Assembly (NCBI GenBank): GCA_964016885.1
Contig: OZ024741.1
Coordinates: forward strand, 297,042,001 to 297,106,000
From: Eledone cirrhosa
Taxonomy: Eukaryota
Direction of reading: 5' to 3'
Length of the DNA: 64,000 nucleotides
Below are positions 14,926 to 20,900 of this stretch, one piece after another. The stretch's first letter is position 1. Each line of letters opens with the position of its first letter. Below the pieces are notes generated by a model. It had not been told where the DNA came from, did no database searches, and saw only the letters and a list, made by a program, of their open reading frames with translations. The translations under genes were made by a program, and so were the position numbers.

Positions 14926-15695
14926 AAACACATATACACACAAATATATTTCAATTTCGACATTGAAGACCTGAACAAGCTATTTAGTTCATTCAGTTTG
15001 AATGTATAAATTGGGCATGAAAATTTTAGATCTGCTAAGGATTTGCAAGCAAATCCACAGATGCTGCAAGAGTGAGGTTTACAAGATAATGTTAGAGTAA
15101 GTGACAGAATTATCAAAATCAGAATAGTCATAGGAAATAGGATGACAACAATTACCTCAAGCTACACACCATAAGCAGGACTAAGTAGGGAACAAAAGGT
15201 CCATTTCTATGAGCAACTTTTACAGACAACCTCATTACAGATGATTGGCATCTTATCAACCCCAGCTGGTGACTTCAATGAGCATATTGAACGGCACCAA
15301 GATGAATACACTGGACTACATGGAGGATATGGTTATGGCTCGAGAAATGAAGAGGGAGTGAGGCTCCTAGAATTCTGTGATGCAAATGAACTATTTGCAT
15401 CACTAATTTCAAGAAACCGGCCAGCCACCTGATCACCTATATGGACATTTTACTCGTTAAAAAATATGACAGGCAGATGATATTGAACACTAAGTCCACC
15501 AGAAGAATGCGACACACAATTAGTTATTTGTGACATCAGAATAAACACAAGATGGAGCAAAACATCTAGGAAAATATAGAGAAGTAGAGTATGGAAACTA
15601 AAAGACCTGACTGTTCAATATAGGTTCAGCAAAGTTCTATGTGATGCATATCACAAGAGGGAAAAGTCAGATATACATACATACATATATATATA

Positions 15696-17971
15696 CCAGA
15701 TAGAAAAATGCGTACAGCAAAAAAAAGTAATATTGTTGGAATATAAACCTTTAAAAATACAGGACAAGAAACTAAAATAAAACTTTAAAAGAATAGGACA
15801 AGAAACTAAGATAAAACTTTAAAAGAATAGGACAAGAAACTAAGATAAAACTTTAAAGAATTGGACAAGAAATAAAAAATGTTACAATAATATTAGTGGC
15901 AAAATTTTTATTGGTAAAAAATCGAGTTCCACATTCATAGGCTCTGGGTTCCACATTCAGAGGTCGTCGTCAGACTGGGGGGATCATTTGATCCTGGTTT
16001 GAACACCAATTGGGCCATAACCATACCCCTATTTCATCATTCGGCGACACGCCTCATGTGTCATGCATAATGTGAATGGACCCATGGGCCCATGAGCACA
16101 GATCTTGAGCAGCAGCGGACGGTCTTGTCGTCCCGCTCATCCTTGATCTTGACCAACCCGTCCATCTTCTCCTTGAGTTCAAGTCCGGCAGTCCAGATGA
16201 ATGCGTACCACAGCTTTCTGGTACAGGAAGGGGGAGCAGGAGGACTGGAGGGATGACGGGACAGAGGGAGGGAGGACCGGTGGTTGAGGGAGGTGCCGTA
16301 GTCGGTGGTCAGAGTCGACATCTTGTCCCGGTCGTCTTCTCCATCTTCATCTGGTGTTGCGGGACCAGAAGTGCATTCTTGGAGGAGACCTGCAGCTGCA
16401 TCGGCCAATTCTTCTTGCAATGGTCATTCTGACGGAGCAGAACTGCTCAGCCAACCAACCTCAACCAGAACCAACCGCTCAGGGGCAACGCACAATGAGA
16501 GCATGATAATTATTATGCACTAATCAAGAAGATACTGGGGCATAGCACAGAAACGAATAAAAAAAATTTGCCACTAATATTATTGTAATATTTTTTATTT
16601 CTTGTCCAATTCTTTAAAGTTTTATCTTAGTTTCTTGTCCTATTCTTTTAAAGTTTTATTTTAGTTTCTTGTCCTGTATTTTTAAAGGTTTATATTCCAA
16701 CAATATTACTTTTTTTTTGCTGTACGCATTTTTCTATCTGGTCTACTATTTTTTAAGTGAATTACTGACAAGTGATTGACATTTTAAAGTTCTTTTGAGT
16801 ATAAATGCAATCTAGTTGAGGCAACTGGCTTAAGGACAAAGCTAGTAAATCATGAATGCATTTGAGATGATTAGTGCATAATAGTGAATTGGTGAAACTT
16901 GTGCATTTCAATGGTGTTACAACAATAGATGTAAGTTATATAGTAGTAATACTTTATCATTTTAACTTTTTAGAATGGACAAAAACCCATGCAAAGAAAT
17001 GACTTTGACTGCAGTGATTCTCTCCAATTTACTTACAAAGCAAAACGTGGTCAAATACCTTATCATCTCTGATAAAATGCCCATTGAATCATTGAAAATC
17101 GGATGCATGGAATTCCTCATAAAATACACCTATGAATCGGAAGCCATCACATATATCAATGGATATAGGGAGTTGTTCACACTGGAAGACCATCACTTCA
17201 TTTGTGACTTCATCAGTTATCTCCACGATTATCTCAGACACCCAATGCCATTGATGAGAGGTGATCCAATGTGTGAGCATGTAACTAATCTTATAGAAGT
17301 TGTTATCGACCACCTGGCTTTTAGTGACATTTGACTGATTTGACTGATAATGATGTATTTTAAAAAAGTATGTGTACATTCTTGTTACTATTTTAAGGCA
17401 ATGCAAGCAACAACTATTTAATAAAATTTAAATTTAAAAATGACCATTGTGCATTACTAGTATGATGACATTTTATTAAGTCACAAAATTAGTCAGTCAG
17501 CCATAGAACAAGGATCAGGTGGCAAAAACATTGGCAAAAATTTGTGTCAATTTAAGATTTCCAACATTGTTCAAATGAATCATATCTGGTTTGAAGTCAG
17601 ATTTGTCAAATTTTGACCAATTTTCAATGTTGTGAAGATTGGGCAAGTTCAATTTTTGAATCATTTCTTTCATGCAGTAATTAAACTTTTCCAAACGTCG
17701 TCATTTCTGGATTACCTCCCCTAGAGTCACGCTTACTACTCACTCACTTGAACACAAGATTTATCAGCAAACTTTGATTATAAACTTTTTCCTGCTGGAC
17801 CAAATTTCTAGATTTTTAAGCCAAAAGATGCGTAATGATCTACTGTTCATGCTCATATAAGTTTTATCTCAGTTAAATAAAGTAGAGCCGCGCTGTACTG
17901 TCGTAAACAGACGGTTGCCAACGAAAACACGACCACAACAATATTACTAAACGGACTACCGTCCGTTTAGG
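15696..17971. mobile_element. Unclassified composite insertion with inverted repeat, cargo ORFs and terminal hairpin
   Basis: Inverted arms 15696-15909 and 16562-16741; hairpin 17947-17970; (TA)n at both ends; interrupts an RTE ORF. Confidence 0.75.
16975..17334 (+). CDS. 119-aa protein with SPOP-type BACK-like N-terminus, carried in the insertion
   Basis: ILSNLLTKQNVVKYLIISDKMPIESLKIGCMEFL resembles the SPOP BACK pattern [39 protein letters not shown] at 16800, candidate intron 16931-16973, AATAAA at 17420. Confidence 0.55.
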   Translation: MDKNPCKEMTLTAVILSNLLTKQNVVKYLIISDKMPIESLKIGCMEFLIKYTYESEAITYINGYRELFTLEDHHFICDFISYLHDYLRHPMPLMRGDPMCEHVTNLIEVVIDHLAFSDI

Positions 17972-20900
17972 ATATATATATATAGATAATAACTGGAATT
18001 TCTTACATGACAACTTACTGCCGGCTACTGATGAAACTTGTGCTGGAGCAGAGTTCCAACCAGACAGAGAGTGACCTGGTGGTAGAACAGCACAGTAGAT
18101 AAGGCCATTAGAGACAAAAGACTAGCATGGAAGGCTTGGAAAAAGAGTGGGAGTAGGGAAGAATATACAGCCGCTAAGAGAGAAGCTAGACGTCAGGTGT
18201 ACTTAGCACGCAGGGAGGCTGAGAGTAGGAGGTTTGCCAATGTTCTGCGACGGGAAGATCAGAGGCGTGCGGTGTTCCACATTGCAAGGCAGTGTGTCAA
18301 TGCAAATCAGGATGTTGTTGGAGATAAATGTGTCCGGAATGATGCCGGTGTACTTAATGTCACGAATGATCAGAAAAAGGAGGCCTGGAAATGTCATTAT
18401 GATGAATGTGGAGAACGAATGGGAGAGAGAGAAATTACCCTCAGTAGATCCGACAGAGGGACCAGCTATTGAGATTGACGAATATAGGGTCCAAGAGGCA
18501 ATTAAGGAAATGAAAAATGGTAAGGCTGCTGGACCATCGGGAATAGTTGCTGAGATGCTGAAGGCATCAGGGGACGTAGGCACTAAACTGGTTGCACGCA
18601 TCATCAATCAGGCTATATATGGTGGTGTCGTACCCAAAGGCTGGTGCAGCAGTATTCTCATAAATTGCTACAAAGGTAAAGGGGATACTCTGGAGAGGAG
18701 CAATTATAGGGGTATAAAACTGATGGATCAGGTTATGAAAGTGGCAGAAAGGATATTAGCACAACTAATTAGAGAAAGGGTCAAACTAGATGAGATGCAG
18801 TTTGGTTTTGTGCTTGGGAAGAGTACAACAGATTCCCTCTTCTTGGCGAGACAATTGCAAGAGAGGTTCTTAGAAAAAAATAAGCCACTATACTTAGCCT
18901 TTGTTGACCTAGAGAAGGCCTTTGATAGGGTACCCTGATCTGTCATCTGGTGGTCCCTAAAGAAACTAGGTGTTGAGGAATGGCTTGTGAGGACAGTGCA
19001 AACTTTGTACAGAGGTACTGTTAGTAAAGTCAGGGGAGGAATGGAGTTTAGTGAGGAATTCCAGATATAGGTAGGAGTACATCAAGGTTCGGTCCTCAGC
19101 CCGCTCTTATTCTTTATAGTCCTCCAAGACATAACAGAGGAGTTTAAGACTGGCTGTCCATGGGAACTTCTCTATGCTGACGATCTGGTTCTTATAGCAG
19201 AATCAGTAGAGGAGCTAGAGAATAAATTCTGGTTATGGAAACAGCAGTTGGAATCAAGAGGACTGAGAGTGAACCTAGCTAAGACAAAAGTGTTGATGAG
19301 TAGAAAAGAGGACAAAACTCTGATTCCGTCAGGGAAATGGCCATGTTCTATATCAGAAAAGGAACTGGCATAAATTCTATAAAATGCACCCATTGCAGAT
19401 CCTGGGTATACAAGAGATGTAGCGGGATAGCAGGCAAACTAACAGGTAGGGGGAAATATGTATGCAGTAGATGTACAGGGAAATTAGACAGTAGAAGTCG
19501 CATTGATAGACACATTTTTCAAATGCAGGCGGGTACTATAGAAGTGGTGGATAGCTTCCGGTACCTAGGAGATCAGATTAGCATGGGAGGGGGGTGCCCT
19601 GAGGCCATAGTATCTAGAATAAGGACGAGTTGGAAGAAGTTTAGGGAACTGCTTCCTCTGCTGACGAAGAAGGGTTTCTCCCTGCGTACGAAAGGCCGGT
19701 TATATGATGCCTGTGTGAGGAGCGTGATGCTGCATGGTAGTGAGACATGAGCAGCAACTGCAGAAGATATGCGATATTCTTTTTCTATTACCCACTCCAC
19801 CTGGTTTCTTACCATAATTCCTTCGTAATCTAGCTCCTACCTCTGCAGTGGAGCACTGTCCAACCCTACCATGCCATATCCCATATATACACATACATCT
19901 AAACCCATGCTAGCGTGGACGATAGACGTTAAACGATGATGATAATGATGATGATATGACAGTGAAGGTGCGTGGCTGAGTGGTTAGAGAATTGGATTCA
20001 CATCAAAGGTTGTGAGTTCGATCCGCAGGCCGGGCAATGCGTTATGTCCTTGAGCAAGACATTTTAGTTCACGTTGCTCCTTCTACCTGGAGTTGCAACC
20101 GATAGATAGTATTAGCAATTGGAAAGACCAATGTAAACATTGTTCCCTCGGTCCAATTTGACGAAAGTCGATCGAATGTGTATATATATGACATAGAAGA
20201 CAATTGGAAGTTTCTATGAGACAACCTACTACAGGCTACTGAGGAGACTTGTGGCTGGAGTAAAGCCCTAGCCGGACAGAGGGTAACCTGGTGGTGGAAA
20301 AATACTGTGGATAGAGCTGTTAAAGAAAAGATGCAGGTGTAGAAAGATTGAAGAAATGGGGACAAAGATTGATATCAAGTAGCTAAAAGAGAAGCTAGAT
20401 GACAGTTATACACAGCACATAAAGAAGCTGAAAGCAGGAGGTTTGCCCATATATTGCGACATGAGGATCAGAGATATGACGTGTACTGCATCACTAAGCA
20501 GTCCATTCATGATAACCAGGACGTCATTGGAAAAAAGTGTGTACAAAATCTCACCACACCATAAATACAACACTTTCCATTTCCTCTCTCACCTACTGTC
20601 ACCTTTGATATCATCCTTCATACTTCTTCCCACTTCTCTCTCCCTAAATAAGTCTGACTTGAGACAAGTCATCATTCTTCCTCCCTCATAGAATCAATAA
20701 CCAACAATCTCCCTAGTGTCAGTGCTGCAATAAAATGCACCTAATACACTCTGCAAAACAGCTGGTGTTAGGAAAAGCATCCAGTCATAGAAAACTTGCC
20801 AAAAAGGGTTGAGAGGACTCTTCAGTTCTCAGAAGACAACAATTTCCCTCATGACTTGCTAATCATCATGGCCCCCTGTCATCTTCATCATGAAGTTCAG

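Follow-up and report, generated by a model that had tools for sequence, protein, structure and literature searches.

In the available portions of the HELIANO study (PMC11417382), DUF6570 and UCH domains are given as features of HLE2, a 5' TC, a 3' CTRR and insertion between A and T as features of HLE1, and a 5' stem-loop ahead of the left repeat as the arrangement termed 'HLE2-reverse'; in the sections consulted of the FoHeli paper (PMC5148889), the 3' repeat lies 20-40 bp inside the end. The same portions of PMC11417382 describe the capture by Helitrons of the ubiquitin-system domains OTU, UCH, FBA_3 and Peptidase_C48. With respect to the relevant host proteins, excerpts of PMC3597819 describe a CUL3 interface formed by the BTB domain plus the 3-box, the latter adding approximately 30-fold affinity, and excerpts of PMC4910529 describe SPOP BACK dimers, with contacts N326/Y353 and E334/R354, which build oligomers that stimulate ubiquitination.

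The window (the whole 64,000-nt stretch of Eledone cirrhosa DNA that was analyzed) contains a rolling-circle element with an ORF as cargo (Table 1), and the closest described system is HLE2 (Helitron2/Helentron group), especially the 'HLE2-reverse' FoHeli3/4/5 and proto-Helentron. Unlike the HLE2-reverse FoHeli elements, it has a 5' TC, a 3' CTRR and an A-T instead of a T-T target, it carries a long inverted copy of its 3' end (approximately 200 bp), and its host is an animal; moreover, an endonuclease domain was not found in the scanned frames of its family. The cargo resembles the captured genes in the available portions of PMC11417382 in being an apparently host-type protein-degradation domain that occupies a constant position within a Helitron family, yet differs from them in being antisense and a lone sub-domain. 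BTB and BACK are absent from the main text and supplement of that study in the form available, and neither a BTB/BACK Helitron cargo nor a 3' fold-back of this kind was described in the open-licence literature searched. The carrier is the firmer novelty, as it joins an animal HLE2-type transposase to HLE1-type ends, a 5' hairpin and the long inverted 3'-end copy.

Table 1. Features of the element, in window positions
Feature	Position	Strand	Remarks
Non-autonomous rolling-circle transposon, 2,277 bp	15696..17972	-	Sharp ends shared across copies; 92-99% matches to parent copy
Terminal arm of long inverted repeat, with 34-bp tandem units; ends CTGG before target T	15696..15909	-	
13-bp sub-terminal inverted repeat, 3'-side copy	15726..15738		30 nt inside the 3' end
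GC-rich loop between arms	15910..16560		On the transposon strand, no long ORF common to the family (82 aa in most copies)
Inner arm, inverted copy of the 3' end, likewise CTGG then T	16561..16741	+	
First copy of junction motif (approximately 110 bp)	16743..16790	+	Window copy lacks 41 bp of the motif
TATAAA	16800..16805	+	Private to the window copy; TATAAT in most others
Candidate 43-nt intron	16931..16973	+	Donor unchanged in 34 of 38 copies, acceptor AG in 37 of 38
119-codon ORF; residues 16-77 SPOP 3-box/BACK-like	16975..17334	+	Antisense to transposase
Second, decayed junction-motif copy, 76% identical	17386..17475	+	Contains AATAAA 17420-17425
13-bp sub-terminal inverted repeat, 5'-side copy	17936..17948		Identical 13 bases in sister family
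5' terminus: TC after target A, then hairpin with 10-bp stem (17947-17970)	17947..17972	-	

Termini, copies and parents of the carrier

RepHel (Helitron_like_N plus PIF1) is present on parent copies sharing both ends with the window element at 95-99%, which places the latter among Helitron-like elements. As in HLE1, the element has a 5' TC, a 3' CTRR and an A-T insertion site; read on the minus strand, A precedes TC in 54 of 55 distinct flanks and T follows CTGG in 66 of 67. Unlike HLE1, it showed no short hairpin 10-12 nt before the 3' end, the hairpin sought in the last 60 nt being no better than shuffles (z = -1.0; 29 of 200 as good), and its transposase comes with UCH and with DUF6570 (E-values of 7e-16 and 9e-18), the latter lacking in the HLE1 type. 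DUF6570 and UCH on the parent are HLE2 markers, and the 13-bp repeat lies within the 12-16 nt of HLE2 terminal inverted repeats, but the T-T site and 3' stem-loop of HLE2 were not found: the target is A-T and the stem-loop stands at the 5' end, as in HLE2-reverse (z = -4.97; none of 200 shuffles as good). Judged from these features, the element appears to mix the HLE1 and HLE2 sets and may be regarded as Helitron2-type by its DUF6570/UCH markers. It blurs the HLE1/HLE2 terminal rule of annotation tools and offers a test of 3'-end recognition. The 5' motif had 433 exact genomic matches in two forms, marking the window family and a sister family, and differing by a compensatory pair change in the hairpin. 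A TIR transposon or MITE was rejected based on the asymmetric ends and on the 11 of 39 copies without flanking duplication, the 2-10-nt flank matches of the other 28 being taken as those expected for (TA)n flanks.

The view that the ORF travels on mobile DNA was confirmed, as it is the cargo of a rolling-circle transposon with at least 214 copies. In a protein search of the 3.0-Gb assembly, 150 of 305 candidates were scored, all of them 96-100% identical and 3 of the 150 with a stop, and a degenerate codon pattern matched 214 genomic sites (vs. 0 for a control pattern); among the first 100 of these 214 matches, 92 were identical and 8 had a single silent change. Non-autonomous copies ranged from 1.4 to 3.9 kb in length.

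The parents were reached through a helicase remnant beside one fetched copy, which shares DNA with the sister family; a search with this remnant gave 92 matches, and the 17 loci examined comprised 13 of the window family, 2 of the sister family and 2 more distant ones. The window element derives by internal deletion from a 12.6-kb element with RepHel and UCH: copy C28 (L237-L238), of that length, has both window-element ends and the order RepHel, UCH, ORF (on the opposite strand) and fold-back. Pfam matches on the parent were Helitron_like_N, DUF6570, PIF1 and UCH, and no examined copy of the window family (family 1) had an unbroken RepHel frame (longest, 1174 aa). The whole ORF was found in only 3 of the 13 parent-type copies (2 intact, 1 frameshifted); of the remaining 10, 7 had a common deletion from 16920 and 3 had other breaks. 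The seven deletion-sharing parents retain sequence from beyond the ORF, and the ORF is therefore ancestral in the window family. Sister parents are 86-88% identical across the transposase, with a single junction motif and no ORF. A canonical HLE1 RepHel as parent was discarded, since nine long-ORF copies and 20 core loci had no ends in common with the family except for one weak 98-bp match.

Autonomous-like relatives were also recorded. A near-intact sister element at L231-L232 (C13:18.88-18.90 Mb) has a RepHel-UCH frame with one stop (1904 + 507 aa), and open frames of approximately 2230 aa occur in many copies of a more distant family. In the sister-family loop (L232:3666-4085, + strand) lies a Cys/His-rich ORF of 140 aa that is open in the sister copies compared and that by its motif we take to be PHD-finger-like; a Pfam scan of it at E 0.05 was empty. 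Sister-family copies (L087, L090, L091, L094, L097, L104) often have two or three tandem 5' termini, an arrangement known for FoHeli from the sections consulted of PMC5148889.

A fold-back of approximately 1 kb closes three partly similar families (window 15696-16741; L231-L234; L183-L196), and in each the 3' end recurs in the inner arm, together with CTRR and the following T, and a common T-rich motif comes next. In the window element the last 110 nt of the terminal and inner arms are 99% identical, and the inverted copy is kept identical to the true end in the three families; arms are 99-100% identical within a family and 87% between families 1 and 2. Across 76 arm pairs, 48 substitutions occurred in both arms (45 sister-family marks and 3 at copy level) vs. 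60 single-arm changes, a pattern in which the arms seem to undergo homogenisation. In most copies the junction motif follows the inner arm, 681 bp upstream of the second motif copy. The opposite strand of the inner arm resembles a circle junction.

Likeness of the encoded protein to SPOP

The hypothesis of SPOP likeness was set ahead of the test, which used a profile built on 45 C-terminal SPOP regions, drawn from 47 of 120 listed proteins. Residues 16-77 of the ORF protein aligned at 11.9 bits, a value reached by none of 1000 shuffles (best, 7.0), 1429 long-ORF windows or 1535 short frames, and 21 genuine host BTB-BACK segments, included as positive controls, scored 0.7-22.4 bits. On a broader host BTB-BACK profile the ORF scored 10.1 bits and 3 of 1535 short frames were higher. 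The hhalign comparison with SPOP was weak (probability 9-14%; 1 of 60 shuffles above the SPOP score). In a multiple alignment the ORF protein was colinear with SPOP at 20-25% identity (residues 10-92), with three helices and the G of the GW motif in register. Atlas neighbours, taken as leads only, were mostly BTB/BACK clusters at 0.88-0.92, the first row being an unnamed 89-aa cluster, half of it viral. The sequence-only reading had assigned the SPOP BACK/3-box pattern to the N-terminal third; the BACK-like character stood, with the extent widened to residues 16-77.

Direct Pfam and PDB-sequence searches of the protein were empty, as were homologue searches near the ORF length and longer; the PF24570 cut-off was not reached, the Pfam scan being blank and the ORF copies falling outside the genome-search matches. 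A 19-residue metagenome match was judged to be chance. The absence of BTB and MATH, claimed from the sequence, agrees with the Pfam scan of the ORF, in which neither was found. Regarding the fold, the expectation of BACK likeness held for the sequence, by the SPOP profile, and not for the unguided model: the single-sequence prediction was all helix at pLDDT 56, and fold searches with this low-confidence model, viral folds included, gave no match. A SPOP-guided model reached pLDDT 74.5 and fitted SPOP at 2.1-2.7 A over 64-75 residues (Z 6.9-7.9), a circular result in which unrelated helical proteins tie.

Based on these comparisons, the ORF protein is likely, but not proven, to be a much-diverged 3-box/BACK piece of a SPOP-type gene. 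It shares colinear helices with the short BACK of SPOP/Roadkill (PF24570; PDB 4HS2). Unlike SPOP/Roadkill, it is without MATH or BTB, its dimer residues and basic C-terminal stretch are replaced, it has an extra C-terminal helix of 27 residues, and it lacks the intron that host SPOP has within BACK; one host exon begins near the ORF start, in a different phase. A host SPOP exon matches bivalve and gastropod proteins at 94% identity, and the genome search for a donor gene returned 2 weak non-SPOP matches and no close donor. In the alignment, SPOP N326/Y353 correspond to I49/I80 and E334/R354 to Y60/S81, so the dimer contacts are not kept. A BACK-only protein would likely fail to recruit CUL3 because the main CUL3 interface needs BTB (excerpts of PMC3597819); the proposed 'modulator of CUL3 ligases' is unlikely in the direct sense, and a CUL3-modulator role for the ORF protein is unproven.

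Gene signals and decay of the reading frame

Every motif and ORF coordinate of the sequence-only reading was borne out on re-reading (TATAAA, 16800-16805; GTAAGT, 16931-16936; TTTTAG, 16968-16973; ATG, 16975; TGA, 17332-17334; AATAAA, 17420-17425), yet the signals are weaker than they look. Its 'self-contained minigene' was not supported by comparison of copies: the TATA box is a private mutation, present in 1 of 38 aligned copies (the window copy alone) and replaced by TATAAT in 34 of 38, and the leader 16756-16920 is retained in parent copies without the ORF. T was found at 16805 in all four sequencing runs compared; the contigs from these runs, of unrecorded kind, contained no 16930/16974 joint, an observation without bearing on splicing. 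AATAAA, present in 37 of 38 aligned copies, lies inside the decayed second copy of the transposon junction motif, whose other copy stands after the inner arm, and occurred in a comparable 160-nt slot in 70 of 500 shuffles. The donor-acceptor pattern by itself had 10 occurrences in the window (5.1 expected). Three features exceeded chance: the combination of donor, acceptor and ATG, a pattern picked after being seen, occurred in 2 of 500 shuffles; dinucleotide shuffling of 16746-17973 gave an ORF of at least 119 codons in 2 of 500 trials; and third-position GC (GC3) was 46% in the ORF vs. 29% in either flank. A 43-aa upstream frame was rejected as a frameshifted BTB end (0.6 bits on the host BTB profile; equalled by 296 of 1000 shuffles).

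Decay was followed in a census for which the protein score was not used: of 1738 flanking-motif matches the first 100 (C1, 1-74 Mb) were taken, and all 41 family sites in this set were included. The ORF was whole at 31 sites (24 intact, 7 broken), partial at 1 and missing at 9, with 44 replacement, 18 silent and 1 nonsense changes at a mean divergence of 0.69%. The resulting pN/pS of 0.75 (p = 0.19) covers inserted copies, not the master lineage, and selection among copies, which had been put forward as a check, was not detected; with BACK-like sequence found, the refuting conditions of the sequence-only reading came out mixed. Among 29 copies, substitutions amounted to 0.69% in the ORF vs. 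0.59% in the adjoining 3' non-coding stretch, and 8 indels (7 frameshifting) were found in the former vs. 3 in the latter. The purifying selection suggested by 29 protein-ranked copies (pN/pS 0.16, p = 2e-5) was discarded as an artefact of choosing by protein identity, and the value for 60 pooled copies (pN/pS 0.63, p = 0.03) carries over the same ranking bias. Inserted copies decay neutrally; ORF-less derivatives spread too, and loss of the ORF does not stop spread.

Origin, possible role and surroundings of the cargo

The ORF is probably a passive passenger on a young Helitron2-type element, a captured SPOP-type 3-box/BACK piece that would not recruit CUL3 alone. The cassette would have been gained once in the ancestor of the family, between two junction motifs, via read-through or recombination between related elements, leaving behind a second junction motif that then decayed, and short copies would be mobilised in trans by the parent RepHel, starting at the 5' TC and stopping at the 3' CTRR. 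Under passive carriage, it is chiefly the recency of the burst (0.7% divergence) that would keep the frame open in most copies. This reading is modest in meaning, since Helitron gene capture is well known and one captured domain is added. However, a frame still open at approximately 22% identity to SPOP, whose host exon is 94% identical to that of other molluscs, requires coding selection somewhere, and no source gene was found; the ATG comes right after a good acceptor, like a genuine first coding exon; insertions would decay neutrally even if the gene were useful to the transposon; and the pN/pS of 0.75, from 62 changes, is compatible with mild selection. A working accessory gene is conceivable, if rather unlikely: the 43-nt leader intron would be spliced out in the active parent, and the resulting small BACK-only protein would cap SPOP-type oligomers or dampen a CUL3 ligase in some other way, beside the UCH deubiquitinase, so as to shield the transposase. 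The coding GC3, the open frame with its ATG adjoining the acceptor, the deep divergence from SPOP without stops, the missing BACK intron, the intact ORF in two RepHel-bearing copies with UCH on the same element, and the stimulation of ubiquitination by SPOP BACK oligomers (excerpts of PMC4910529) are consistent with such a gene, but the undetected selection among copies, the loss of the whole ORF in 10 of 13 parent-type copies and its absence from the sister family, the replaced dimer contacts, the lack of BTB and a TATAAA that is not general argue against it. If the BACK protein were expressed and bound SPOP, this would be a case of a transposon modulating a host cullin ligase in the manner of viruses. 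The most elaborate version, which we regard as quite unlikely, is a two-part ubiquitin counter-defence kit, with a transposase-fused UCH deubiquitinase and a stand-alone BACK decoy capping host SPOP-CUL3 oligomers, borne by a Helitron2 variant whose ends look canonical and whose 3' fold-back homogenises itself; if true, a transposon would here encode an inhibitor of a cullin ligase adaptor.

The BACK origin assumed for the passenger is itself exposed to the match under the Pfam cut-off and the weak hhalign result. An amphipathic helical ORF with another ancestry or none, BACK-like by chance, would fit the empty Pfam, PDB-sequence and homologue searches, the unguided model without BACK match and the 3 of 1535 short frames scoring higher on the broader profile. 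Chance likeness is nevertheless improbable, since the ORF stood above all 3964 controls on the SPOP profile under a hypothesis set beforehand, and the colinear three-helix alignment with the GW-motif G in register, with which the Atlas agrees, points the same way. Most improbable of all is a virus-derived gene acquired by the transposon and akin to poxvirus BTB-BACK-kelch proteins. The compact layout and the half-viral top Atlas cluster are in its favour, as is the binding of CUL3 by poxvirus BTB-kelch proteins (available part of 10.1101/461806), yet the ORF matches the short SPOP-type BACK profile best and the Pfam matches in the scanned frames of the parent include no viral gene. The 'virus-like' label gave way accordingly: the carrier is a Helitron, and no viral relative was found in viral contigs or, with the low-confidence model, among viral folds.

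The window DNA is rich in RTE retrotransposons, and the Helitron lies in a TA tract between endonuclease-like and reverse-transcriptase RTE remnants (window 15090-15480 and 18000-19750). Exons of a host ubiquitin-specific protease (Pfam UCH), presumably USP8-like, were found at window 21527-46868 (- strand); its last coding exon ends approximately 3.5 kb away, so the element lies outside the coding region. Elsewhere in the genome, near-identical Helitron Rep cores are spaced approximately 100-150 kb apart (G000 C20:3.5-5.2 Mb, C27:13-15.5 Mb, C19 and C16), suggesting large tandem segmental arrays. Two copies at L031-L032 (C1:18.34-18.36 Mb), 16 kb apart and in opposite orientation, have private variants in common, suggesting a local hop.
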